From positions 14,147 to 38,146 of the forward strand of contig DAOUHB010000015.1 in NCBI GenBank assembly GCA_034428935.1: a stretch of 24,000 bases of DNA, given 5' to 3'. The position numbers were made by a program, and so were the translations under genes. This DNA is from Anaerolineae bacterium (GTDB lineage: Bacteria > Chloroflexota > Anaerolineae > JAAYZQ01). The notes beneath the pieces are model-generated. The model worked only from the letters and a program-made list of their open reading frames with translations, had not been told where the DNA came from and did not search any database. Positions 1 through 24,000 of this stretch are shown piece by piece. Positions within the stretch are counted from its first letter, which is position 1. Each line of letters begins with the position of its first letter.

Positions 1-476
1 CCAACGCGGGCTACCTGTTCCTCAAGAAGCTGGCCCGCAATGAGCCCGGCATCCAACCCGGCGGCGATGAGGTCGACGCGGCCTTTGCGACCCTGGGCAT
101 GGATCCGTCGGTCGAGCCGGGGTATGGCTGGACCGGCCTGTCGAGCTACGAGAGCACCATGGAAGGGGAGCTGGCCATGGCGCCGTGCTACGGCCTCGAA
201 CCGACAGTTGGCATTCTGAAGGCGTCTTACCTGGCGATTGCGAACAAGGCTCCGCATCCCAACGCCGCCAAGCTGTTCATCAAGTTCGCCCTCTCGGAAG
301 AGGGCTTTAAGCCGTGGAACCAGATGGGTGCCTACTCTGGCGTGGAGGGGATGCCCCTCGCCGAAGGCATGCCGGCCAGGGACGAGATCAAGCTCTGGCC
401 CAGCGACGATCTCTTTGGCTATCAAAACCTGAGCCCCGTGCGTGACTTCTGGGCCATCAGTCTACTGGCTCCCTAG
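1..476 (+). CDS. ABC transporter substrate-binding protein, C-terminal part (5' end lies outside the window)
   Basis: The frame is open from the window edge (codon phase from nt 3) to TAG 474-476; track ORF 99..476 is its tail. '...LAIANKAPHPNAAKLFIKFALSEEGFKPW...' resembles the conserved C-terminal lobe of iron/phosphonate/polyamine-class periplasmic binding proteins. The substrate cannot be determined. Confidence 0.7.
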   Translation, partial: NAGYLFLKKLARNEPGIQPGGDEVDAAFATLGMDPSVEPGYGWTGLSSYESTMEGELAMAPCYGLEPTVGILKASYLAIANKAPHPNAAKLFIKFALSEEGFKPWNQMGAYSGVEGMPLAEGMPARDEIKLWPSDDLFGYQNLSPVRDFWAISLLAP

Positions 477-579: not shown

Positions 580-1353
580 ATGGCGACCAATCGCATCCGC
601 GCCGTCATCTTTGACATGGGCGGCACGCTGGAGACTGTTTACTATGACGATACCACCCGCCACGCGGGTGCGTGCGCGATGCTCGAGTTCTTGCGCAGCC
701 ACGACCTGGACCCCGGCCTGGGGGTGTCCGAGTTACAGGCCGCCGTCGTCTCCGGGATGGAGGCGTACCAGGCGTGGCGAGAAGGAAGCGAGGTGGAGCT
801 GTCGCCCGAGCAGGTGTGGACAGAGCACATCCTGACCGATGGCAGTCTGTGCAAGGAGCGGTTGGCGGCCGTCGCCGAAGAACTGACCTATCTGCACGCC
901 ACCCGGTTTCAGGCGCGGAGCTTGCGCCCCGAGGCGCCGGCCCTTCTCGAGGCGTTGCGCAGCCGCGGACTTCGCCTGGGCATGATCTCCAATGTCCTCA
1001 GCCGCAGGCTGGTGCCGGCCTGCCTCTCAGAGTACGGCATCGCCCACTACTTCGAGCACGTCCTGACCAGCGCTGATTTCGGCTGGCGCAAGCCGAATCG
1101 ACGCATCTTTGACGAGGCGGTCCGCTTGATGGGGGTGCCGGCTGCGGCCTGCGCCTACGTGGGCGACACTCTTTCGCGCGACGTCGTCGGGGCCCGGCGC
1201 GCCGGCTACGGCCTGGCGATCCAGATCCGGTCCTTTCTCACGGCCCGGTCGGACCAGGGCATCGTGGATGTGGAGCCTGACGCGGCCATCCAGGACCTGA
1301 TGGACGTCCTGGGGCTCGTCTCGCCCGTGGGGGAGGCCTCTGCCCATGCTTAA
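580..1353 (+). CDS. HAD-superfamily hydrolase, subfamily IA-like (paralogue 1)
   Basis: Start moved from track ATG 526, which lies inside the 507-541 hairpin, to ATG 580, which is preceded by GGAAGGAAAG (560-569). Motifs: I 'VIFDMGGTL', II 'LGMISNV', III 'WRKPNRRIF', IV 'YVGDTLSRDVVGA'. A helical cap insert sits between motifs I and II. Confidence 0.85.
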   Translation: MATNRIRAVIFDMGGTLETVYYDDTTRHAGACAMLEFLRSHDLDPGLGVSELQAAVVSGMEAYQAWREGSEVELSPEQVWTEHILTDGSLCKERLAAVAEELTYLHATRFQARSLRPEAPALLEALRSRGLRLGMISNVLSRRLVPACLSEYGIAHYFEHVLTSADFGWRKPNRRIFDEAVRLMGVPAAACAYVGDTLSRDVVGARRAGYGLAIQIRSFLTARSDQGIVDVEPDAAIQDLMDVLGLVSPVGEASAHA

Positions 1354-2032
1354 AGGAGTCCTGTTCGATGCGGCGGGCGTGCTGTATCAACGCCCGCAAT
1401 CCACGGGCCAGTTCGTGGCCGACCGTTTGCGGGAGAGGGGTCTCCCGACCGAGCTGACGGAGGAGGATCGCCTGCGGCAGAAGGCGCTCAAGTCGGAAGG
1501 AAGCCGGGGGCGCATCAGCCCCGAGGAATACTGGGATCGGGTGCTCCAGATGCACGGCCTCGACGACCCGGAGGAGCGCCAGAGGCTGATGGCCGCCATC
1601 GACCGCCACTCGGACGACGTCAGGCCGATGCCCGGCTGCCAGGAAACCCTGGCAGGGCTGAAGCAGCGCGGCCTGATCCTGTGTATCGTCACCGACACGA
1701 TGCACTCCCTCGAGCATAAGATGCAGTGGTTGGTGAAGGCCGGCATCGCCCCGTGGATCGATTTCGTGGCCTGTTCGACGGTCCTGGGCGTCCATAAACC
1801 CGACCCTGCCATCTACCTGGACGCGCTGCGACAGGCAGGGCTGCAGGCGGACGAGGCCGCTTTCGTGGGCCACGACGCCGAGGAGCTGGACGGCGCCCGC
1901 GCGGTTGGGCTGGCGACCATCGCCGTGAACCATGATCCTGGCGCCAGGGCGGACTATTACCTGGGCTCGCTCACAGATCTACTCAACGTGCCCATCCTTC
2001 GGGACACAGACGAGCAAGGGGGCAGCGAATGA
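1346..2032 (+). CDS. HAD-superfamily hydrolase, subfamily IA-like (paralogue 2)
   Basis: ATG 1346 overlaps the previous stop (TAA 1351-1353) by 8 nt. Motifs: I 'VLFDAAGVL', II 'ILCIVTDT', III 'VHKPDPAIY', IV 'FVGHDAEELDGA'. Confidence 0.85.
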   Translation: MLKGVLFDAAGVLYQRPQSTGQFVADRLRERGLPTELTEEDRLRQKALKSEGSRGRISPEEYWDRVLQMHGLDDPEERQRLMAAIDRHSDDVRPMPGCQETLAGLKQRGLILCIVTDTMHSLEHKMQWLVKAGIAPWIDFVACSTVLGVHKPDPAIYLDALRQAGLQADEAAFVGHDAEELDGARAVGLATIAVNHDPGARADYYLGSLTDLLNVPILRDTDEQGGSE

Positions 2033-2820
2033 AGGACAACAGGGACATGGAAGCCATTTTCATCGACGTGGGCAACACGATGCGCATTGTGGTCAAGGAC
2101 GACGAGTTTCAGAGCCAGGCCAGGCAGCAGCTCGTGACGTTGGTCGGGGCGAACGAGACGCCCGATGCCTTCTGCGACTTGCTGGAAGCAAGGTACCGGG
2201 TCTACCGGAAGCATGCCAAGCAGTCCTTAACCGAAGCCTGCGAAAGAGATCTGTGGACCCAGTGGATGCTGCCCGACTTTCCGGCCGACAGGATCGGGCC
2301 GCTGTCCGGAAGGCTCACCCGCCTGTGGCGCGATCGCGACGGGCGGCGGGTCGCGCGGCCGGACGTCAAAGACGTGGTGCTGGAGCTGACCCGGCGGGGC
2401 TATCACCTGGGGATCATTGCCAACACGATCACCGAGACCGAGATCCCCGACTGGCTGGAAGCGGACGGCCTGACCGGCTACTTTGAGACCGTGGTCCTTT
2501 CCTCCAAGACCGGCCTGCGCAAGCCCGGCCCGGAGATCTATATCGAGGCGGCGCGCCGCATTGGCGTGGAACCGGCCCGCTCGGTGTACGTGGGCGACAA
2601 TCCTTCCCGCGACATCCTGGGGGCGCGCCTGGCCGGCTACGGGCTGGCCATTATCTTGATGGAGCCGGCCACGCTGGCCAAGGAACCCCCCACCGAGGAT
2701 CACAAGCCCGACTATGTGATCCACGAAATGAGCGATCTCCTCGACCTCTTTCCCGGCCCTCTATCGGGCGCAACGGGCGCGGCAGCGGCAGCCGGAACGC
2801 GGAGAATCGATGCCGGATGA
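2029..2820 (+). CDS. HAD-superfamily hydrolase-like protein (paralogue 3, degenerate motifs)
   Basis: ATGA start/stop overlap with the previous gene (2029-2032). Motifs: I 'IFIDVGNTM', II 'LGIIANT' (Ala where Ser/Thr is expected), III 'LRKPGPEIY', IV 'YVGDNPSRDILGA'. It shares '...SRD..GAR.AGYGLAI' with paralogue 1. Confidence 0.8.
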   Translation: MKDNRDMEAIFIDVGNTMRIVVKDDEFQSQARQQLVTLVGANETPDAFCDLLEARYRVYRKHAKQSLTEACERDLWTQWMLPDFPADRIGPLSGRLTRLWRDRDGRRVARPDVKDVVLELTRRGYHLGIIANTITETEIPDWLEADGLTGYFETVVLSSKTGLRKPGPEIYIEAARRIGVEPARSVYVGDNPSRDILGARLAGYGLAIILMEPATLAKEPPTEDHKPDYVIHEMSDLLDLFPGPLSGATGAAAAAGTRRIDAG

Positions 2821-4417
2821 TTCCCTCCCGCGTGGCGGAGCCATCCTCGCCGAGGCCGTCCGGGACCTGTATCGCCAGGGACAGACCGACTACTGGATCG
2901 AGCCGCTGGTCCTGCTCGACGGCCAGAACAGGCCGGCCGGCCGGATCCAGGACGGCGACGCCGTCGTCTTTTGCTGCCGCCGCGGCGAGCGCGAGATCCA
3001 ACTGACGGAGGCCTTTGTCGATCCCGGCCTGGACCGCTTTCCCCGGCACGAGTTTCAGGATCTGCACTTTGTGATCCTGACCCTCTACCACCAGAAGTTT
3101 GTAGACGTGCCCGTGGCCTTTGCCCCCACCAGCATCGAGGATACCCTGGGGCAGGTCGTCAGCCGCGCCGGACTGCGGCAACTGCGCGTTGCCGAGTCGG
3201 AAAAGTATGCACACGTCACCTATTTCTTGAACGGGGGCCGGGTTCAGCCGTTCCCCGGCCAGGACGGGACGCGCGTTCCCTCTCCCCACGGCATCCCCTT
3301 CGAGCAGGTACCAGAGCTGAGCCTGCCCCGGGTGGCCGAGGAAGTGCTGCGCGGCATGCAGGCGGGCTACGATCTCGTCGTGGCCAATTTTGCCAACGGC
3401 GACGTGCTGGGACACACCCAGAATGCCGAGAGCAAGGTCGCGTGCGCCGGGCTGATCGATGCCCGGCTGGGACAGGTCATCGATGCCGCCCGAGCCCTGG
3501 ACTATGTGACGCTGGTGACGGCCGATCACGGGAACCTGGAAGTGATGGTCCATCCCGACGGCAGGCCCCACGTCTCGCACACGGCCAACCCCGTGCCGTT
3601 CATCCTCGTCGATCCCCGCGGGCCGCAGCCTGTCACGCTGCGCGACGGCAAGCTGGCGGACGTGGCGCCGACCGTGCTGGACGCCCTCGCCCTGGACACG
3701 CCCGGGTCCATGACCGGAGAAACCCTGGCGCCCGGCTGCCGCTGGGGCGGCCGCCGCCGCCTGCTGCTCTTGATCCTCGATGGCTGGGGCCTGGGCAAGA
3801 GCGACGACACGAACCCCATCTTTATCGCCAGGACGCCTGTGTGGGACGAGCTGTTGCAGCGCTTCCCGTGTTCCCTGTTGCAGGCCGCGGGCGAGGCAGT
3901 GGGCCTGCGGCCGGGAAAGCCGGGCAACTCCGAGGCCGGCCACATGAACGCCGGCGCCGGCCGGGTCGTGCTCCAGGACGACGTCCGGCTCGACCTGGCG
4001 ATGCGCGATGGCTCGTTCTACGAGAACGAGGTCCTTGGCCGCGCCATCGAGGAGGCCAAGGCCCGCGACACGAGCCTGCACCTCATCGGCCTCCTCACCG
4101 AAAAAAGCTCCCACGGCTCCATCGACTATCCCCTGGCCCTGCTGCGCATGGCCAGGGCCAGAGGCCTCGGCCGCGTCTACCTGCACCTGATCCTGGACGG
4201 GCGCAGCACGGAGCCGGGCAGCGCCCCGGCGATGCTCGAGAAGCTGGACCGCCAGATAGACGAGATCGGAGTGGGGCGGATCGTCTCCGGGATGGGGAGG
4301 GGGATCGCCCTGGACCGCGATGGCGACTATGCCAGGACCCGGCGCGCCTACGACGTGCTGGTGTTTGGCACCGGGAGGCCGTGCGCCGCCCGGGGATCGA
4401 CACAGAGCGAAAGGTGA
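2810..4417 (+). CDS. Cofactor-independent phosphoglycerate mutase (iPGM, alkaline-phosphatase superfamily) homologue with circularly permuted segment order
   Basis: ATG 2810 overlaps the HAD-3 stop by 11 nt.
- Residues 1-~308 match the C-terminal ~300 aa of canonical iPGM: 'GLRQLRVAESEKYAHVTYFLNGG', 'NFANGDVLGH', 'VTADHGN', 'SHTANPVP', and 'MTGETL' (the normal C-terminus).
- Residues ~317-535 match the normal N-terminus: 'LLLILDGWG', 'GNSEAGHMNAGAGR' (catalytic Ser motif), 'SLHLIGLL', 'LILDGRS', 'ALDRD'. Confidence 0.85.
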   Translation: MPDDSLPRGGAILAEAVRDLYRQGQTDYWIEPLVLLDGQNRPAGRIQDGDAVVFCCRRGEREIQLTEAFVDPGLDRFPRHEFQDLHFVILTLYHQKFVDVPVAFAPTSIEDTLGQVVSRAGLRQLRVAESEKYAHVTYFLNGGRVQPFPGQDGTRVPSPHGIPFEQVPELSLPRVAEEVLRGMQAGYDLVVANFANGDVLGHTQNAESKVACAGLIDARLGQVIDAARALDYVTLVTADHGNLEVMVHPDGRPHVSHTANPVPFILVDPRGPQPVTLRDGKLADVAPTVLDALALDTPGSMTGETLAPGCRWGGRRRLLLLILDGWGLGKSDDTNPIFIARTPVWDELLQRFPCSLLQAAGEAVGLRPGKPGNSEAGHMNAGAGRVVLQDDVRLDLAMRDGSFYENEVLGRAIEEAKARDTSLHLIGLLTEKSSHGSIDYPLALLRMARARGLGRVYLHLILDGRSTEPGSAPAMLEKLDRQIDEIGVGRIVSGMGRGIALDRDGDYARTRRAYDVLVFGTGRPCAARGSTQSER

Positions 4418-4421
4418 GACC

Positions 4422-5615
4422 ATGCTGCCGCCCGACCTGAGTTATGCGCGCTTTTCCCAGGCTCTGTACGAGAGGATGGGAGCCATCAATCCCGGCATCG
4501 AAGACCTGGAGCTGTACGAGTTCCGTTACTGCCTGAACAACCTGAACCCCGGGGAGGGCGGCTGGCCCGCCGTCGCGCCCGCGCCGAGGCAAGAGATCGA
4601 GGCGTGGATCCGGGACGCCGACTTTTATCGGGGCATCCAGATCAAGCCCCGTGCCGGCGACCGGATCGTGCTGGACGAGACCATCGAGCGGCTGACCACC
4701 ATGCTCCTGGTCGGGCTGGTGACCGGGGAATACCCGGCGGAGTGGATTCGGGCCCACTTTTACTTTGACATCCGCGGCTTTTACTTCTTGACGCGGACGC
4801 ACTATTTCACCGAGGCCGTGGTGGCCCACCTGGGCGGCGCGCCGTTCCAGGCCTTCGAACGACGGCAGCGATGCCTCGATCGCTGCCAATCCATCGGCTA
4901 CAAGGCCTTCAAAGAGGCCAACGCCGAGGTGGACGCCGCGTTCATGGACGACGTTGAGAGGCTCATCGCCGTCAAGGGTACCCCCATTGTCCTGGCCATC
5001 GCCGGGCCGACGGCGGCTGGCAAGACCGAGATCGTCGAGCGCCTGCGCTGCCGCTTCGAGGAGGCAGGAAGGCAGGTCACCTCCATCGAGATGGACAACT
5101 TCTTGACCGACCGCGAGCAGCGCGAGGAGAAGGGCATCCACACCCTGGGCAAAGAAGCCATTCATTTTGAGCTTTTCCGGCAGAGCCTGGAGGACATTTG
5201 CCGGGGACGGGCGATCTCGATCCCGCGCTACGATTTCATCTTTGCCACGTCCAGCCACGACCTGGACGGCACGCTAAAGCCGGGCGGGGTGCCCGTCGAG
5301 ATCGAGCCGGCCGACGTCATCTTTATCGAGGGCAACTTTCCGTTCCTGCTGGACGAGGTCGCGCACCTCATCGGCATCAAGGTCGTCTACCTCACCGACG
5401 ACGCCATCCGGCTGAAGCGCAAATGGCGGCGCGATATCGACTATCGCAAGAAGTACGAGCCCACCTACTTTCGCAACCGGTACTTTCGCAACCAGTTCCT
5501 CATGGCCCAAAAGTGCTACGTGCCCCAGATGCAGCTCTGCGATCTGACCGTCGACACAACCGGCGCGGCCATCTGGGCCACGCCCGAAACTGCCGCGACC
5601 CTGAGAAGTCCTTAG
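4422..5615 (+). CDS. Uridine kinase / phosphoribulokinase-family P-loop kinase with an unrecognised N-terminal domain
   Basis: ATG 4422 follows GAAAGGTGA (4409-4417) and lies 4 nt after the mutase stop. Track ATG 4320 would overlap the mutase gene by 98 nt. The C-terminal half carries a Walker A 'IAGPTAAGKTEIVERL', 'SIEMDNF', 'IPRYDF', 'VIFIEGNF' and 'DAIRLKRKWRRDI', as in the Udk/PRK family. I do not recognise residues 1-~185. Confidence 0.8.
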   Translation: MLPPDLSYARFSQALYERMGAINPGIEDLELYEFRYCLNNLNPGEGGWPAVAPAPRQEIEAWIRDADFYRGIQIKPRAGDRIVLDETIERLTTMLLVGLVTGEYPAEWIRAHFYFDIRGFYFLTRTHYFTEAVVAHLGGAPFQAFERRQRCLDRCQSIGYKAFKEANAEVDAAFMDDVERLIAVKGTPIVLAIAGPTAAGKTEIVERLRCRFEEAGRQVTSIEMDNFLTDREQREEKGIHTLGKEAIHFELFRQSLEDICRGRAISIPRYDFIFATSSHDLDGTLKPGGVPVEIEPADVIFIEGNFPFLLDEVAHLIGIKVVYLTDDAIRLKRKWRRDIDYRKKYEPTYFRNRYFRNQFLMAQKCYVPQMQLCDLTVDTTGAAIWATPETAATLRSP

Positions 5616-7990
5616 GATGCGTCGTCGGGGCCGGCGTCGCTCGTGGTCGGCTCCAGCACCGTCTGCCGCAGCAGCGAGTGCAGGGCGCTGCTGCGCCGTT
5701 TGACGACCACCACCGAGACCTCAGCCCGGCGGGCCACCTCCCGCGAGATGTTGCCCGCCAGCAGGTTCTTGAACAGGGGCTCTTCCGTGGCGCCGATGAC
5801 GATCAGGTCGTGGCCCTCCGCGGCCTCCAGAACGGCATCCACCACGTTGGTCCCCTCCACCGTCTGGCGATGCACGGCGTCGTAGCTCAGGCCCTCCAGG
5901 GCATAGTCCATCACCTGCCGGGCACGCACCTGGTCCGCCGGGCGGGATCCCGGAGGCAGGACGTGCAGCAGCGTCACACGCACTGGGCCGTCCGATTCGC
6001 CATGGGCCATGTTCACTGCCATGCGTGCTGCCCGCCGGCTATTGGGGCCGCCCGCCACCGGCACGAGAATCGAGCGGAGCGGCCGGTAGGCCCGGTAGCG
6101 CACGATGGCCATGTCGGTGGGCGGGTCATCGAGGATTGGGTCGATCACCGAGCCAAAGAGGCGGCCGGCGGTGTTCGTGTAGCCGGGCCATCCCAGGACG
6201 ATCAGGTCGGACGCGTTCTCGATCACGGTCTTGCGCACCGCTTGAGCCACGTCGCGGCCCAGGCGGATCATGGTGTGCACGGGCACGTCGCGATCCTTGG
6301 CCTGCCCGATGACTGTTTCCAGGTAGGAACGCCCCTCCTTGAGCATCAGTCGGCCGTCGGCCAGGCTCAGTTGGACCGGCACCCGGACGACGTGCAAGGC
6401 CAGCACCTCGCCCTGGTTCGCCTGGGCCAGAACCGCACCGATACGCCCCAGGATGCGTGCCTGCTCCTCCGTCGCCACCGGCACCAACACGGAATAATCG
6501 CGGCTGACCAACACCTCCTCCAGGAGAATCTCCTTGGGCCTTTCCATGGCCTCAACGCGAGAGAAATAGGTATAGTACGAAAGCATGCCCACCACCAGCC
6601 AGCCGGCGGCCAGGTACCAGGCCCGGGGGCTGAAGGTGAACAGCAGCACGGCCAAAGCGGCGTTGCAGACGATGGCAGCCATCGGGATGGCCGGCACCCA
6701 GGGAACTCGAAAGCCGCGGTCGAGGTTGGGCAACTTGCGCCGAAGCAGCAGGAGTGCCACGTTGACCTGCAGGAAGAGCAGCAAGAACATGATGTCGGCC
6801 GAGGCGGCGACGTCCTCCAGCGGCAGCGACCAGGCGATGATGAGCATCAAGCCGCCCGAAGCCAGGACGGCCAGGTGGGGCGTGTGCCGCCGCGGGTGGA
6901 CGCGGGCGAAAAAGGCCGGCAGGTTGCGGTCGCGGCCCATGGCGAACGAGACGCGGGAGGAAGAGTAGGTGGCGGCGTTGAGGGCCGACATGGTGGACAC
7001 CAGCCCGCTGATGAGCAGCACCACCGCACCGATGCCCAGGGGGAACACCTGCCGGGCTACTTCGACGATGGCCACCTCTTTCGCCTGGCCCAGGTATTCG
7101 TAGGCCTCCATGCCCGGGGGCGCGACCGTGGCACCGATGGCGGTGACGCCGACCAGCAGATAGATGATCACGGCGATGACGATGGCTGCAAAGATGGCGC
7201 GGGGGACGTTGCGCTTGGGGTTGATCACCTCCTCGCCCGACTGGGCAATGATCTCGTAGCCCTCGAAGGCGATAAAAGTGAGGCCCATGGCCACAAACAC
7301 CCCCGCCAGGCCGTTTGGCATGAACCCGGTCGTGAATCGTGCCTGCCAGGCCTCGGTACGGGCCATGGCCAGGACGCCAAAGAGCACAAACATGCCCAGG
7401 ATGACGATCTTGGCCACGGTCACGATGTTGCCCACCTTCCCGGTCTCCGAGGCACCCCTGTAGTTGACGCTGGTGAAGAACAGGACGATGAGCGTCATAA
7501 GAACCAGGGTCATCTGCTGGACCGACAGACCCCAGGTGGGCAGGCCGGCCATGATCCACAATTCGCTGGCAAAGCGGCCAAATCCCAGCGCGTACAGGCT
7601 GCCGGCGATGGCCGCCGCGAACCAGTTCATCCAGCCTGCCAGGAAGCCTTGTACTCCGCCCACGCCCTCCTTGACCCACAGGTAGCCGCCGCCGGCCTCC
7701 GGAAAGGCCGAGCCCAGCTCCGCGTAGGCCATGCCGGTCAGTGTGGTGACGAGGCCGTTGAGGAAAAAAGCCAGGATGAGGGCGGGTCCGGCCACGCCAG
7801 CGGCCGTGCCGGTGAGCACAAAGACACCGGCTCCGATCATGCCGCCCACGCCGATCATCGTGATGGTGAACAGGTTCAGGTCGCGGCTGAGGCTGACCTC
7901 GACCGGGACGTTGGTGGTATTGCGGTTATTCTTGCTCAAGGGCTCTCCTCTGGAGGACGATGTTCTGGATCGTCCCTGGTCGCGGTCCAT
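5612..7990 (-). CDS. APC-family amino-acid/polyamine permease fused to two C-terminal universal stress protein (USP) domains
   Basis: N-terminal half: 'LFTITMIGVGGMIGAGVFVLTG...AYAELGSAFPEAGGGYLW' plus about 12 hydrophobic segments. C-terminal half: two USP-like units ('YSVLVPVAT...LIVLGW' and 'RSILVPVAGG...LIVIGAT...VVVVK'). It is convergent with the kinase gene and the stops overlap by 4 nt. Alternative start TTG 7939 follows GAGGAG (7944-7949). Confidence 0.9.
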   Translation of the reverse strand: MDRDQGRSRTSSSRGEPLSKNNRNTTNVPVEVSLSRDLNLFTITMIGVGGMIGAGVFVLTGTAAGVAGPALILAFFLNGLVTTLTGMAYAELGSAFPEAGGGYLWVKEGVGGVQGFLAGWMNWFAAAIAGSLYALGFGRFASELWIMAGLPTWGLSVQQMTLVLMTLIVLFFTSVNYRGASETGKVGNIVTVAKIVILGMFVLFGVLAMARTEAWQARFTTGFMPNGLAGVFVAMGLTFIAFEGYEIIAQSGEEVINPKRNVPRAIFAAIVIAVIIYLLVGVTAIGATVAPPGMEAYEYLGQAKEVAIVEVARQVFPLGIGAVVLLISGLVSTMSALNAATYSSSRVSFAMGRDRNLPAFFARVHPRRHTPHLAVLASGGLMLIIAWSLPLEDVAASADIMFLLLFLQVNVALLLLRRKLPNLDRGFRVPWVPAIPMAAIVCNAALAVLLFTFSPRAWYLAAGWLVVGMLSYYTYFSRVEAMERPKEILLEEVLVSRDYSVLVPVATEEQARILGRIGAVLAQANQGEVLALHVVRVPVQLSLADGRLMLKEGRSYLETVIGQAKDRDVPVHTMIRLGRDVAQAVRKTVIENASDLIVLGWPGYTNTAGRLFGSVIDPILDDPPTDMAIVRYRAYRPLRSILVPVAGGPNSRRAARMAVNMAHGESDGPVRVTLLHVLPPGSRPADQVRARQVMDYALEGLSYDAVHRQTVEGTNVVDAVLEAAEGHDLIVIGATEEPLFKNLLAGNISREVARRAEVSVVVVKRRSSALHSLLRQTVLEPTTSDAGPDDAS

Positions 7991-8007: not shown

Positions 8008-8035
8008 ATTATATCACAGCCCGGGGGAGGGTCAA
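8008..8035 (-). promoter_or_regulatory. Sigma70-type promoter for the APC-USP permease
   Basis: On the minus strand: TTGACC (8035-8030), 16-nt spacer ending in TGa, TATAAT (8013-8008). Only 17 nt separate the -10 box from ATG 7990. Confidence 0.6.
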
Positions 8036-10413: not shown

Positions 10414-10641
10414 GAGTGCGTGGGCGGCGTTGCCCCATCTCAAGCTCGATTTCGCGAGCGTCCTCGCCATATGCCCTGACAATGTTGTTCCCCGGGACAC
10501 CGATCAGGTCGCGAACCAAGAGCATCGATCCTACCGGCGCCAGCCGGCAGGCGGCGACGTGTCGCGCGATCTTGGCTTCCTGTTCGCTGGCTGGGTCCGG
10601 TGTTGGCGGTCGAATCACCCTTTTGTACGGGAGGTACCAGT

Positions 10642-11799
10642 ATGGACATTCTGACCCTGGACGACTTTGGCGCTCTCGAGGCCCAGGATGCCAGCCCCTG
10701 CGTCTCGATCTTTATGCCCACCCATCGCGCCGGCCGGGAGACCCAGCAGGACCCGCTTCGCCTCAAGAACCTGCTGGGAGAGGCGGAAGCGCGGCTGATC
10801 GACGCCGGCCTGCGCTCCCCCGTGGCGCGGGAGGTGTTGGAACCTGCCCAGGCGCTCCTGGACGAATCCGCCTTTTGGCGGCACGCGAGCGACGGCCTGG
10901 CGTTGTTTGCCGCGCCGGGGGAGTTTCACACCTATCGCCTGCCCCTCGACCTGGAAGAACTGCTCGTCGTCGCCCCACGCTTTCACCTGAAGCCGCTGTT
11001 GCCGTTTTTCGCCGGCGACGGCCACTTTTTCATCCTGGCCCTCAGCCAGGACCACGTCCGCCTGCTGGAAGGCACCCGCCACGGCGTGGACGAGATCGAG
11101 CTGGAAGGAGTCCCCACCAGCATGGCCGAGTCCCTGCCCCACGATGACCTGCAAGCGCACCTCCAGTTCCAGACCCGCACGGGGATGGCGCAGGAGGGGG
11201 GCGATCGGGCAGCCGGTTTTCACGGCCACGATCCCGACGACGAGGCCAAGAACCGCATCCTCCGCTACTTTCAGCGTCTCGACGAGGGCCTTCAGGAGGT
11301 GCTGCGCAACGAGCGGTCACCCCTGGTGCTGGCCGGCGTAGACTATCTCCTGCCCATTTACCGGGAGGCGAACAGCTATCGCCACCTGGTGGACGACGAG
11401 GGGATCACGGGCAACCCTGAGGAGATGAGGGCCGAGGAGCTTCACACACCGGCGTGGGAGATTGTGGAGCCCCGCTTTGCCGCCGCCCAGCGCCAGGCGC
11501 GGGACGCCTATGCCCAGGTGGCAGGCACCGGGCGGACATCCACCCGCGTGGGAGAGGTCGTGCCGGCGGCTCACTACGGCCGCGTGGACGTGCTGTGGGT
11601 GTCCCTGAATAGCCAGGTGTGGGGGCGCTTCGACCCGGAGACCGGGAACATCCAGAGGCGCGAGGAGCCGGAAGCCGGAGACGAGGACCTGCTGGACCTG
11701 GCTGCCCTGCGGACCCTGTCGAATGGCGGCACGGTTTATGCCGTAGACACGGCCGGGGTGCCCGGCGGCGGGCCGCTGGCGGCCCTCTTGCGCTATTGA
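10642..11799 (+). CDS. Bacterial archaeo-eukaryotic release-factor-like (baeRF-type, eRF1/Pelota superfamily) protein
   Basis: ATG 10642 follows GGGAGG (10629-10634). The N-terminus 'PCVSIFMPTHRAGRETQQDPLRLKNLLGEAEARL' is, as I recall it, the signature of baeRF3-like proteins. The C-terminus 'LLDLAALRTLSNGGTVYAV' resembles eRF1 domain 3. No GGQ motif is present. The family call is from memory only. Confidence 0.6.
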   Translation: MDILTLDDFGALEAQDASPCVSIFMPTHRAGRETQQDPLRLKNLLGEAEARLIDAGLRSPVAREVLEPAQALLDESAFWRHASDGLALFAAPGEFHTYRLPLDLEELLVVAPRFHLKPLLPFFAGDGHFFILALSQDHVRLLEGTRHGVDEIELEGVPTSMAESLPHDDLQAHLQFQTRTGMAQEGGDRAAGFHGHDPDDEAKNRILRYFQRLDEGLQEVLRNERSPLVLAGVDYLLPIYREANSYRHLVDDEGITGNPEEMRAEELHTPAWEIVEPRFAAAQRQARDAYAQVAGTGRTSTRVGEVVPAAHYGRVDVLWVSLNSQVWGRFDPETGNIQRREEPEAGDEDLLDLAALRTLSNGGTVYAVDTAGVPGGGPLAALLRY

Positions 11800-11908: not shown

Positions 11909-13687
11909 ATGACGCCACAAATTGCCCTCACCCTGGCCATTATCGGCGTGGCGGTGGTGCTCTTTGCCACGGAAAAGCTGCGCGTCGACGTGATCGCCCT
12001 CCTGGTTCTCGTGGCCCTGTTCCTCGGGGGCCTGGTCAGCCCTGGCGAAATGTTTGCCGGCTTTGCCAGCCCCGCGGTCGTGACCGTGTGGGCCGTCTAT
12101 ATCGTGTCCGGCGCCCTGTTCAAGACCGGCGTCGCCGACTTTTTAGGAGAGCGCATTATCAGCCTCGCGGGTACCAGCGAGCCGCGGCTCATCGCCATTA
12201 TCATGCTCACCTGCGGCGTCATGTCGGCCTTTATGAACAACATCGGGGCCACGGCTGTTTTGCTCCCGGCCGTGGTGGGCGTTTCGCGCAAGGCCAACGT
12301 GCCGCTGTCGCGGCTGCTCATCCCCCTGTCGTTCTCGTCGCTCCTGGGCGGCAACATGACCCTCATCGGCACGCCGCCCAACGTCCTCGCCGCCGGCCTG
12401 CTGGCCGATCAAGGGCTGCCCGGTTTCGGATTCTTTGACTTCCTGCCGACGGGCGCCATCGTCTTTGGCGCCGGCATCCTCTACATGGTGCTTGCCGGCC
12501 GGCACCTTATCCCTGTGCGGCAGCCGGTGGAGGAGGTACAGGCGGCGGCCATGCGGGAATACGTCAGCGAGGTCCGGGTGTCGACGGATGGCACGCTTGC
12601 GGGCCAGACCCTGCGTGAATCCCGCCTCGGGGCGGAATATGACCTGACGGTCATCGGCATCCTTCGGGACGACGTGATGCTGAGCATGCTCAATCCTGAG
12701 ACACGCCTGGAGCCCGGCGACCTCCTTCTTCTGGAGGGCACAGTAGAGGGGTTGATGCGCGCCCGTGGCGCCCTTGGACTGGAAATCGAGGCCGAGCGCA
12801 AATGGGCCCTGGACGACCTGGAGTCCGGCGATGCCCACGTCGTGGAGGCTACCCTGGCCCCCCGCTCGCACATGGTGGGCCGCACCCTACGGAACACGCA
12901 CTTTCGGGATCGCTACGGCTTCACAGCCCTGGCCATCTGGCGCCAGGGCGAGGTCATCACCCAGCGCCTGCGCGACGTGCGGCTGCGGTTCGGCGACGCC
13001 TTGCTGTTATGGGGGCCACGCCACCGCCTGCCCGGGCTCCAGGAAGATGGCGATTTCCTGGTCCTGGAGCCCGTCAAGATGGAAACGCGCCGCCAGCACA
13101 AGGCGCCCATCGCCGTTGGGGCCATGGCCCTCGTCCTGATCCTGGCAACCCTGGCAGACCTGCCCATCGCCACGGCCATGGTCATCGGCGCGGTGGTGAC
13201 GGTGCTGGGCGGGTGCCTCACCATGGACGAGGCCTACCAGAGCATCGAATGGCGCAGCGTGTTCTTGATCGCCGGCATGCTGCCCCTGGGTACGGCCATG
13301 GAGACGACCGGCACCGCCCGCTTCCTGGCCGATCTGCTCGTGGGCCTCCTGGGCAGCATTGGCCCGTTGGCCATCCTGGCGGGCATCTATATCCTGGCCG
13401 GCCTGATCACCGAGCCCATGTCCAATGCCGCGGCCACGGTGTTGATGGTCCCCATCGCCATCGACATCGCCCTGGGCCTGGGCGCCAATCCCCAGCCCTT
13501 TGTCCTGGCGACGGTCATCGGCGCTTCGACCAGTTTTCTCACTCCCGTAGGCCACCAGGCCAACGTCCTGGTGCTCGGACCCGGTGGCTACCGTTTTTTC
13601 GATTACACCCGCGTCGGAAGCCTTCTCAACCTGGTCATCCTGGCCGTCACGTTGGTCTTCTTGCCGCTCATCTGGCCGCTGTTCTAG
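11909..13687 (+). CDS. SLC13/DASS-family anion permease with two central TrkA-C (RCK C-terminal) domains
   Basis: Hydrophobic N- and C-terminal halves ('MSAFMNNIGATAVLLP', 'EPMSNAAATVLMVPIA') flank two TrkA-C-like units ('VRVSTDGTLAGQTLRES...LEPGDLLLLEG' and 'VEATLAPRSHMVGRTLRN...LRFGDALLLWG'). Confidence 0.85.
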   Translation: MTPQIALTLAIIGVAVVLFATEKLRVDVIALLVLVALFLGGLVSPGEMFAGFASPAVVTVWAVYIVSGALFKTGVADFLGERIISLAGTSEPRLIAIIMLTCGVMSAFMNNIGATAVLLPAVVGVSRKANVPLSRLLIPLSFSSLLGGNMTLIGTPPNVLAAGLLADQGLPGFGFFDFLPTGAIVFGAGILYMVLAGRHLIPVRQPVEEVQAAAMREYVSEVRVSTDGTLAGQTLRESRLGAEYDLTVIGILRDDVMLSMLNPETRLEPGDLLLLEGTVEGLMRARGALGLEIEAERKWALDDLESGDAHVVEATLAPRSHMVGRTLRNTHFRDRYGFTALAIWRQGEVITQRLRDVRLRFGDALLLWGPRHRLPGLQEDGDFLVLEPVKMETRRQHKAPIAVGAMALVLILATLADLPIATAMVIGAVVTVLGGCLTMDEAYQSIEWRSVFLIAGMLPLGTAMETTGTARFLADLLVGLLGSIGPLAILAGIYILAGLITEPMSNAAATVLMVPIAIDIALGLGANPQPFVLATVIGASTSFLTPVGHQANVLVLGPGGYRFFDYTRVGSLLNLVILAVTLVFLPLIWPLF

Positions 13688-23607: not shown

Positions 23608-24000
23608 ATGCAGCCCAACGGCTATCGAGACGCTCTCAACTATCTCTACAGTTTCACCGACTACGAAAAAAGAGGATTTGCCGCATACGCCCCCGAGTTC
23701 TACAACCTCGACCGTATGCGGCACTTTTTGGCGCTGCTGGGCGATCCGCAGCAGGCGTTTCCGTCGCTGCACGTTGCCGGCACCAAGGGCAAGGGATCCA
23801 CGGCGGCCCTGGTCGAGTCGATCCTGCGCGCCGCCGGCCTGAAGACCGGCCTGTACACTTCTCCCCACCTGCACTCCTTTCGCGAGCGGATACAGGCTGG
23901 CGGGGCCTTGATCCCCGAGGCGGACGTCGTGCGCCTGGTGGAGAGCACCCGGTCCCTCGTCCGCCAGGTGGACGATATCACCACCTTCGAGATCATGACC
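23608..24000 (+). CDS. folC: Folylpolyglutamate synthase / dihydrofolate synthase, N-terminal part (runs off the window end)
   Basis: Not in the ORF track because there is no stop in the window. ATG 23608 gives 'MQPNGYRDALNYLYSFTDYEK...LDRMRHFLALLGDPQQAFPSLHVAGTKGKGSTAALVESILRAAGLKTGLYTSPHLHSFRERI', the Mur-ligase/FolC P-loop and N-terminal pattern. Confidence 0.9.
   Translation, partial: MQPNGYRDALNYLYSFTDYEKRGFAAYAPEFYNLDRMRHFLALLGDPQQAFPSLHVAGTKGKGSTAALVESILRAAGLKTGLYTSPHLHSFRERIQAGGALIPEADVVRLVESTRSLVRQVDDITTFEIMT

Follow-up and report, generated by a model that had tools for sequence, protein, structure and literature searches.

In the genome of Anaerolineae bacterium (Chloroflexota; assembly GCA_034428935.1), five adjoining genes for enzymes of phosphoryl-transfer superfamilies are located behind the 3′ end of a gene encoding the solute-binding protein (SBP) of an ABC transporter. 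The stretch under investigation, termed the window, comprises 24,000 nucleotides (nt) of contig DAOUHB010000015.1 (positions 14,147 to 38,146, forward strand). The five genes encode three proteins of HAD fold (HAD1 to HAD3), a circularly permuted homologue of the cofactor-independent phosphoglycerate mutase (iPGM), designated pPGM, and a kinase of the Udk/PRK family. This gene content and the gene boundaries had been read from the sequence in an initial annotation, and open reading frame (ORF) listing and domain scans have borne them out. The window genes are a compact form of a cluster that is conserved across many Anaerolineae species. The features are listed below in window coordinates; loci and proteins of relatives are cited by L and P numbers.

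3-476, plus strand: solute-binding lipoprotein gene, 3′ end (last 158 codons), with weak SBP_bac_1/8/11 matches
~500-547 (core 510-538), plus strand: conserved intercistronic RNA stem-loop (fold, palindrome and covariation analysis)
580-1353, plus strand: HAD1, 257 amino acids (aa), motif I DMGGT (PF00702, 82.7 bits)
1346-2032, plus strand: HAD2, 228 aa, motif I DAAGV (PF00702/PF13419 match)
2029-2820, plus strand: HAD3, 263 aa, motif I DVGNT (PF00702/PF13419 match)
2810-4417, plus strand: pPGM, 535 aa (iPGM alignment)
4422-5615, plus strand: kinase, 397 aa, Udk/PRK-fold domain at residues 186-378 (PF00485 over residues 190-378)
5612-7990, minus strand: convergent amino-acid permease/Usp gene at the downstream end of the cluster (domain scan)

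Organization and conservation of the locus

The gene junctions, read at base level, are exactly those described initially, namely an 8-nt overlap of HAD1 and HAD2 (ATGCTTAA), a 4-nt overlap of HAD2 and HAD3 (ATGA), an 11-nt overlap of HAD3 and the pPGM gene (ATGCCGGATGA), and a gap of 4 nt between the pPGM and kinase genes (TGA-GACC-ATG). A purine-rich, Shine-Dalgarno-like stretch is found 5′ of every start codon of the five genes. The start choices fit the lengths of orthologues, the kinase being 100% identical to the 397-aa protein P0121 and the mutase 95% identical to the 535-aa protein P0001; an alternative GTG start at 526 falls within the hairpin. At the downstream end, the kinase stop codon TAG (5613-5615) and the end of the convergent permease/Usp ORF at 5612 result in a 4-nt overlap of the 3′ ends, with no terminator between the two genes. 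According to the domain scan, the genes farther downstream in the window are unrelated to the cluster.

Co-translation and, probably, stoichiometric function had been proposed from the overlaps. The overlaps are present in the window; in relatives, where gaps between cluster genes have medians of 10-30 nt (starts estimated by homology), frequent overlap is limited to HAD1/HAD2 (7 of 13 cases, median -8). Since the overlaps are mostly peculiar to the window's lineage, a stoichiometric complex is not implied for the whole set. For HAD1 and HAD2, the coupling may have a functional meaning, and that of the remaining genes is a feature of a compact lineage of 65% G+C.

For the conservation of the locus, one genome per GTDB species was scanned for the kinase, which is encoded by 161 of the species genomes. 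The best 80 loci of these 161 genomes were examined; almost all are from Anaerolineae, with the cultured Levilinea saccharolytica KIBI-1 being among the carriers. The locus is present in the complete or near-complete genomes CP070811.1, OY969578.1 and NZ_LGCM01 (KIBI-1). Synteny was counted, upon mapping by tblastn and ORFs, in a non-redundant set of 51 loci, each 18 kb or longer. In every one of these (51/51), all core genes are on one strand. A mutase of any kind is present in 48 loci and pPGM in 44, while an SBP and two or more HADs are each present in 45; an RpiR-type regulator gene is found in 41 loci, the archaeal-type mutase gene apgM in 38 and AP_endonuc_2 in 32. A single locus may carry up to six HAD paralogues and two mutases. 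With the mutase as anchor, HADs and kinase adjoin pPGM in 7/7 contigs, and the kinase family is found only in this locus context.

Two layouts are distinguishable. In type A (the window, L001, L011, L013, L085, and L086), the order is RpiR, fused permease, ATPase, SBP, (AP_endonuc_2), HAD1, HAD2, HAD3, pPGM, (apgM), (AP_endonuc_2), kinase, and (Pit, PhoU_div, PfkB). In type B, to which most of the more distant loci belong, two or three HAD3-like genes, pPGM, apgM, kinase, (second kinase), and (MFS) are followed by RpiR, permease, ATPase, SBP, HAD1′, HAD2′, (HAD3′), AP_endonuc_2, PhoU_div, and Pit. In many loci, the operon continues into PhoU_div and Pit across gaps of 11-21 nt. In L003, the order of kinase and mutase is swapped, and in L008 the kinase is inverted relative to the other core genes. 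Because the gene order has been reshuffled while the gene set stayed together, functional linkage is indicated rather than mere inherited adjacency. The synteny in more than 50 species-level loci, in which homologues of the permuted mutase and the kinase co-occur from either anchor, upholds the earlier view of one conserved functional unit tied to an ABC transporter. That this unit consists of five genes needs correction; it is larger in relatives, where RpiR, the ABC transporter, apgM, AP_endonuc_2 and PhoU_div/Pit are added.

Further neighbours recur beyond the cluster. Of the 53 loci that are at least 18 kb long, 33 have, within 10 kb, at least two genes of a divergently transcribed operon with a LacI-type regulator, as in the upstream flanks of L014, L028, L031, L036, L039, L040, L044, L046 and others. 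It encodes IolG (433-483 bits versus a cutoff of 355, thus a true equivalog), D-mannonate oxidoreductase (375 versus 281), UxaE (461 bits), an IolM-like Zn-dependent dehydrogenase and a LarA-like putative hexonate epimerase, sometimes with IolB, IolD and IolE-like genes in addition; the IolM-, IolO- and IolE-like matches are below the cutoffs. The gene set of this operon is reminiscent of the Thermotoga-type pathway that leads from myo-inositol to hexuronates. The closest relatives of the window (L001-L016, except the type B locus L014) are devoid of inositol/hexuronate neighbours, with only L013 having a single such gene, and there is none downstream in the window. For the lack of these neighbours in the closest relatives, the inositol/hexuronate link is a lead only. 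Another phosphate-related neighbour is the polyphosphate-associated trio of CotH, DUF4956 and VTC-domain genes just downstream in L087 (10388-13347, minus strand). Three short contigs (L020, L023, and L026) are labelled as metagenome-assembled genomes of Chitinophagales, Bacteroidota and Syntrophothermus; mis-binning is more likely than horizontal transfer, because gene content and 67-68% identity match Anaerolineae.

Enzymes of the cluster

Residues 316-523 of pPGM correspond to residues 4-211 of the iPGM of G. stearothermophilus, and residues 15-306 to iPGM 218-508 (E = 8e-115), with an identity of ~40% over both halves. Judged from this alignment, pPGM is a true circular permutation of iPGM. 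The N terminus lies midway through the transferase domain (residue ~215 of the G. stearothermophilus enzyme), and the first half of that domain comes last in the chain; in the phosphatase domain, the C-terminal part precedes the N-terminal part, the old termini being joined by a ~9-residue linker. The domain order is B2-A2-A1-B1 (iPGM_N, Metalloenzyme, iPGM_N in terms of Pfam) and not the canonical one of phosphatase N-part, transferase, and phosphatase C-part. The TIGR01307 model is matched with 478.8 bits (cutoff 330.65), as two stretches in swapped order, while the score for NF003897 is below the cutoff (392.9 versus 862). In an AlphaFold model of pPGM (predicted confidence, pLDDT, 70), the only significant structural matches are iPGM crystal structures, with ~297 columns aligned, as is expected of an order-dependent aligner. 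An assembly or gene-calling artefact was ruled out as the cause of the permutation, because more than 120 full-length clusters with identities of 69-95% come from independent assemblies (NCBI, JGI, ENA, and Logan); the named ones are Anaerolineae. A phosphopentomutase identity was rejected as well, with 17-32 bits for the respective models versus 479 for iPGM.

Residue conservation was assessed in 185 family members, using G. stearothermophilus numbering. Invariant in 185/185 are D12, S62, H66, H123, R153, R264, K336, D403, H407, D444, H445, and H462; R185, R191 and R261 are kept in 184/185. In the alignment, the Ser nucleophile, which is Ser374 in the window protein, and every metal ligand are intact. 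The phosphoglycerate-binding set of iPGM (H123, R153, D154, R185, R191, R261, R264, and K336; 1EJJ) is conserved in seven of its eight members, D154 being replaced by Ser in 185/185. Further changes are G121S (185/185), H125S (179/185) and Lys or Arg in place of G120 (182/185), so that the SDGGVHSH loop of iPGM reads TEKSSHGS in the window protein. With D154S and the Lys/Arg at G120, the pocket therefore has one acidic group less and one basic group more. The sources annotate pPGM as iPGM. In L088 (10001-12808), one of the seven contigs reached through the mutase, pPGM and apgM are fused via a short basic linker into a single ORF of 935 aa (protein P0048, representing a cluster of five sequences), which is found in the usual locus context.

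The HAD proteins of the window are mutually 26-32% identical and all match PF00702 and PF13419 above the gathering thresholds; their best NCBIfam match is TIGR02253, far below its cutoff. The alignment reveals that the nucleophilic Asp, the Ser/Thr of motif II, the Lys of motif III and the acidic motif IV are kept, and that the residue two positions after the nucleophile (Asp+2) is Gly or Ala in all three. This position was surveyed in 176 HAD-like ORFs with a readable motif I from 84 related loci, by a pattern that would have caught the canonical DxDGT, too. Not one of the 176 has Asp at +2; the residue is G, A, N or S. In HAD phosphatases, Asp+2 serves as general acid/base (bioRxiv 10.64898/2026.09.11.751015). 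For the absence of this residue, the HAD paralogues are unlikely to act as ordinary phosphomonoesterases or mutases, and to speak of three HAD phosphatases, as was done initially, is too simple. In most loci, HAD3 is the paralogue directly 5′ of pPGM.

The kinase is assigned at the superfamily level only by PF00485 (66.7 bits versus 22); it scores 59-68 bits with the Udk models, whose cutoffs are 180-220, and 72 with the PRK model (cutoff 236). Its motifs are a Walker A sequence (GPTAAGKT), the catalytic Asp in MDNF, P-x-Y-D-F, and an Arg-rich lid, and its modelled C-terminal half superposes on the uridine-cytidine kinase UCK2 with a target-normalised TM-score of ~0.67. For the N-terminal ~185 aa, no relatives were found by phmmer on 1.84 billion representatives, and no match was obtained by profile or by Foldseek versus PDB. 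The family is narrow, with ~5 full-length clusters at 50% identity and full-length matches down to 43% identity, beyond which there is a sharp drop to generic Udk/PRK proteins matching the P-loop half alone. Scored against solved structures, the family profile matches UCK2 with E = 2.5e-12 and PRK with 2e-8. The suggested link to P-loop glycerate 3-kinases is devoid of specific support, and a glycerate-3-kinase identity was rejected, since GLYK (6ckg, 7xpc) is matched with E = 0.6-0.9 over ~45 residues around the P-loop only. A second kinase copy in tandem, 55-63% identical to the window kinase, is encoded in 12/51 loci; tandem kinases were noted in L014, L017, L021, L022, L040, L044, L049, L050, L064, L070, L077-L080, L082, and L084.

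Transporter, regulator, and stem-loop

The window does not contain permease and ATPase genes; both are found upstream in relatives. The SBP fragment of the window aligns collinearly with the SBP of L001, a 453-aa protein whose gene comes after those for a fused 611-aa permease and an ATPase. A family profile built from 24 SBP orthologues was scored versus solved structures and matched Thermus FbpA (1e-15), another Fe(III) binder (3e-8), the pyridoxal phosphate-binding P5PA (5e-6), and AfuA (1.7e-4). By this profile, the SBP is assigned to the Fe(III)/AfuA/P5PA class. The class includes importers of phosphorylated organic compounds that were mis-annotated as iron transporters (PMC4546632, PMC8427247); AfuABC, annotated as Fe3+ transporter, is an importer of sugar phosphates (PMC4546632), and a related binding protein binds pyridoxal phosphate (PMC8427247). 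The alignment of the profile with AfuA spans chain residues 4-163 only, the sugar-binding residues H205, D206 and E229 being outside the alignable region. The permease of the relatives is a double BPD_transp_1 protein, with the model of the putative 2-aminoethylphosphonate permease PhnU2 as the best match, far below its cutoff, and the ATPase is UgpC/PhnT2-like. The regulator combines HTH_6 and SIS domains and is of the RpiR/MurR type, below all equivalog cutoffs.

The hairpin reported initially at 507-541 is real, albeit slightly larger (~500-547). Its core at 510-538 is the palindrome TGGACACGAAC...GTTCGTGTCCA, which is not followed by a U-tract. A 116-nt context folds at -50.5 kcal/mol (z = -4.2), with 0/200 shuffles being as good. 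A stem of at least 10 uninterrupted base pairs after the SBP gene is present in all 47 of the SBP-HAD1 spacers, 44 of which have z values below -2. Among 89 sequences (1.56 Mb), 40 have a single copy each of the palindrome TGGACACGGAC-N(3-10)-GTCCGTGTCCA, mostly 23-49 nt after the SBP stop codon, and it is found nowhere else; a dispersed repeat of the repetitive extragenic palindrome type was ruled out, since no locus has more than one copy and this is invariably located behind the SBP gene. The consensus CTTTGGACACGGAC-loop-GTCCGTGTCCAAAG is seen at the same position in L001, L008, L011, L015, L021, L085, L086, L088, and others. In a few loci, this post-SBP place is taken by GC-rich stems that are unrelated to it. 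Among 34 aligned copies, 96% of the cells are paired and 10 of 15 pairs are changed on both sides (in 31 cells); 0/500 shuffles reach any of these measures, and the pairing breaks down in every shifted register. Loop sequence and length vary, the total element having 25-32 nt. No Rfam 15 family matches the stem-loop, the only hit being noise (mir-3122, 26.6 bits versus 92, E = 0.13). Thus, the hairpin is not incidental but a conserved, covarying and locus-specific RNA element. The unusual conservation of the stem sequence suggests that the stem would be recognised in a sequence-specific way.

The simplest reading is that of an RNA-level element within one transcript, which would set the expression of transporter versus enzymes by partial termination or 3′-end protection. 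A palindromic DNA operator is less likely, given that the loop length varies and that the one-sided stem changes which keep the pair are G·U in 19/19 cases. An internal sigma-70-type promoter before HAD1 is also less likely. No sigma-70-like promoter was found in the window between positions 1 and 5615, and none scoring at least 9/12 in 42 SBP-HAD1 spacers of relatives, which extends the earlier finding of no promoter between the binding-protein gene and HAD1. With the core genes being co-directional throughout and these spacers devoid of such promoters, read-through from the transporter genes, as suggested initially, is plausible. A near-consensus sigma-70 promoter (TTGACC, 16-nt spacer, TG-TATAAT; 11/12) is located at 8008-8035 on the minus strand, 5′ of the permease/2xUsp gene starting at 7990; consensus-like promoters, therefore, do occur in this genome.

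Elsewhere in the window, a bacterial archaeo-eukaryotic release-factor-like protein (baeRF family 3/7) is encoded at 10600-11799 (plus strand), adjoined by a CitMHS transporter with TrkA_C domains (11909-13687). Two very long ORFs are found on the minus strand at 17459-23618, one of 884 aa without Pfam match and one of 939 aa with a C-terminal ILEI domain only. They are located in the window's most G+C-rich part (71-72% at 21-23 kb), where the opposite strand also has long open frames.

Proposed function and comparison with known systems

The five genes would constitute the enzyme half of one transcription unit for the uptake and conversion of an anionic organophosphate, a proposal that is given about an even chance. 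An RpiR-controlled operon importing and processing such a compound is the most likely explanation of the locus, the likeliest compounds being phosphorylated sugars, sugar acids or cyclitols. The conserved gene set with its co-directionality, the intact catalytic machinery with its fixed family changes, the transporter class, and the RNA element are shown by the data; what the solute is, which way the flux runs and what each enzyme does is inferred. SBP, permease and ATPase would import the solute. Via its intact Mn/phospho-Ser machinery and the retained basic cluster, pPGM would move a phosphate between neighbouring hydroxyls of a substrate that would carry a second anionic group; D154S and the added Lys/Arg in the TEKSSHGS loop would shift its specificity away from plain 2-phosphoglycerate (2PG) and 3-phosphoglycerate (3PG). 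The Udk/PRK-like kinase would use ATP to phosphorylate a hydroxyl group, either on the substrate or on an intermediate. The HAD paralogues, with Asp nucleophile and Mg site in the absence of the general acid, may accept or remove activated phosphoryl groups or, else, be slow, specific hydrolases. RpiR would sense a phosphosugar intermediate via its SIS domain, the stem-loop would adjust the ratio of transporter mRNA to enzyme-gene expression, and Pit, where present, would handle the released phosphate.

Several points weigh against this proposal. A kinase, a mutase and phosphatase-like enzymes have no obvious net chemistry; every transporter component is below its NCBIfam cutoff; among solved structures, the SBP comes closest to a protein that truly binds iron; the window itself carries no Pit/PhoU_div, apgM or AP_endonuc_2; and Chloroflexota promoters may differ from the sigma-70 consensus, which leaves room for an internal promoter. 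In addition, pPGM keeps essentially the whole phosphoglycerate site, passes TIGR01307 and could be the organism's glycolytic phosphoglycerate mutase. That pPGM, with or without apgM, serves as glycolytic mutase of the lineage is the main alternative.

If this is extended to the entire locus, there would be no dedicated pathway at all, with pPGM being a housekeeping glycolytic mutase, the ABC transporter an iron importer, and the other genes neighbours by vertical inheritance. This is considered very unlikely. The annotation of pPGM in the sources and the iron-binding relative of the SBP agree with it, and since all data are from one bacterial class, the conserved synteny could partly reflect shared ancestry. 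However, the gene order is rearranged (layouts A and B, kinase either preceding or following the mutase, one inversion) while the families stay together and co-directional, a pPGM-apgM fusion exists, the active-site changes are family-wide and invariant, the regulator in 41/51 loci is of the sugar-phosphate type and not an iron regulator, and the kinase family is confined to this context. The route considered in the initial annotation, from D-glycerate via 3PG (P-loop kinase) to 2PG (pPGM) with the HADs being phosphatases of the phosphoglycolate/phosphoglycerate type, is somewhat less remote, but still decidedly unlikely. It would fit the complete set of Arg, Lys and His residues of the phosphoglycerate site and the TIGR01307 score of pPGM (478.8 versus 330.65), the weak matches of the HADs to phosphoglycolate phosphatase models, and the membership of glycerate 3-kinases in the kinase superfamily, with 6ckg and 7xpc among the profile matches. 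It is at variance with the GLYK similarity, which is not significant and confined to the P-loop when compared with UCK and PRK, with the invariant D154S and the rebuilt SDGGVHSH loop, which speak against plain phosphoglycerate mutase specificity, with the second mutase adjoining pPGM in most loci, which would be redundant, with HADs devoid of the general acid needed for phosphomonoester hydrolysis, and with a transporter class not known for carboxylates.

Salvage of nucleosides or nucleotides, with a uridine/cytidine-type kinase, HADs as 5′-nucleotidases and a phosphopentomutase-like mutase, is the least probable of the explanations considered. Uridine-cytidine kinases are the closest relatives of the kinase among solved structures and sequences, its P-x-Y-D-F and S-S-H motifs align with the acceptor-site region of UCK2, and the HADs weakly match the models of YjjG and pyrimidine 5′-nucleotidase. 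Yet the kinase remains far below the Udk equivalog cutoffs (59-68 bits versus 180-220), the FD pair of UCK2, which binds the ribose 2′/3′-hydroxyls, corresponds to an invariant L-G in the kinase family, the mutase is iPGM-like (479 bits versus 17-32), and no nucleoside phosphorylase, hydrolase or deaminase is encoded in any locus examined. A more specific form of the organophosphate proposal is the utilisation of inositol phosphates (phytate and lower inositol phosphates) or phospho-hexonates, in which a cyclitol or sugar acid bearing several phosphates would be imported, mutases would reposition phosphates, HADs would strip them, Pit would dispose of the phosphate, and the carbon skeleton would enter the neighbouring IolG/IolM-like/UxaE/UxuB pathway. 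This sub-case is regarded as unlikely, and so, to the same degree, is an otherwise unrecognised catabolic system of Anaerolineae for an abundant environmental organophosphate, such as phytate-like inositol polyphosphates or phosphorylated hexonates, with neo-functionalised enzymes. In such a system, the cationic-pocket pPGM together with the sometimes fused archaeal-type mutase would walk phosphates around a polyol ring or chain, the HADs without general acid would be position-specific phosphoryl acceptors or hydrolases, the new kinase family would contribute an orphan substrate domain, and the sequence-specific stem-loop would set the transporter/enzyme ratio. The divergent IolG/UxaE/mannonate-oxidoreductase operon at 33/53 long loci, the pPGM pocket, which loses the acidic D154 and gains Lys/Arg as would suit a more anionic substrate, the up to six HAD paralogues and two mutases per locus, and Pit in the operon are consistent with the use of inositol phosphates. 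However, the window and its closest relatives are free of inositol/hexuronate neighbours, the adjacent operon is on the opposite strand under its own regulator, so that the adjacency may be inherited synteny only, the IolM-, IolO- and IolE-like matches are below the cutoffs, the kinase would have no obvious role in dephosphorylation, and no known phytase family is present. The literature searched, itself incomplete, yielded nothing relevant on bacterial ABC uptake of inositol phosphates or on the Iol/Uxa pathway names.

The organophosphate operon, as favoured here, is built from parts of known superfamilies; it is a substrate-uptake operon with variant enzymes and not a new category. In agreement with the initial annotation, no description of the cluster in Anaerolineae, or of a permuted iPGM, was found in the literature searched, itself incomplete. 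Anaerolineae rank with the most abundant bacteria of anaerobic digesters, sediments and the subsurface, and few of them have been cultured. The presence of the locus in well over a hundred Anaerolineae species points to a nutrient or metabolite route hidden by the current labels "phosphoglycerate mutase", "uridine kinase", and "HAD hydrolase", in a cluster that combines an importer with phosphoryl-transfer enzymes all of which are atypical. The permuted iPGM is a clean, naturally occurring circular permutant of an alkaline-phosphatase superfamily enzyme and has undergone an active-site change that is invariant, which makes it a tractable system for how permutation and specificity change go together; the conserved stem-loop is a candidate for a new cis-regulatory or processing RNA. 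If pPGM were the only glycolytic phosphoglycerate mutase, the reconstruction of central metabolism in the carriers would change. The locus is of relevance to enzymologists and to the reconstruction of Chloroflexota metabolism.

With iPGM (GpmI), pPGM shares the nucleophilic Ser, the side chains of the six metal ligands checked, the residues H123, R153, R185, R191, R261, R264, and K336, and, according to the model, the two-domain fold of the alkaline-phosphatase superfamily; it differs by the circular permutation, by the invariant D154S and G121S with the rebuilt SDGGVHSH loop, and by being always embedded in this locus and not in a glycolytic operon. The kinase has Walker A, catalytic Asp, P-x-Y-D-F, Arg-rich lid and the predicted UCK2 fold in common with the UCK/PRK family (PF00485), whereas it is only ~24-30% identical, stays well short of the equivalog cutoffs for Udk and PRK, and has an insertion of ~10 residues after PxYDF and the extra N-terminal domain of ~185 aa. 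The HADs share the Rossmannoid core and motifs I-IV with HAD subfamily IA (TIGR02253/TIGR02252; PH0459, HDHD3/REG-2-like; L-2-haloacid dehalogenase type), the best matches being TIGR02253, HDHD3 (3K1Z), and PH0459 (1X42). To our knowledge, no function has been assigned to the closest solved relatives. In contrast to subfamily IA, the HADs of the locus are below all family cutoffs, have DMGGT, DAAGV or DVGNT as motif I, and come as three to six linked paralogues per locus.

On the transport side, AfuABC and the related P5PA system, both of Actinobacillus, represent the same Fe(III)-type SBP class, combined in the relatives of the window with a fused double-domain permease and a single ATPase; the similarity is weak (E = 1.7e-4 for AfuA, 5e-6 for P5PA), and AfuABC has no linkage to HAD, mutase or kinase genes in PMC4546632. 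With RpiR/MurR-controlled phosphosugar operons, finally, the loci of relatives share an arrangement in which the regulator is encoded first, followed by the transporter and enzymes of sugar-phosphate type, while in the present case the regulator gene is not part of the window.

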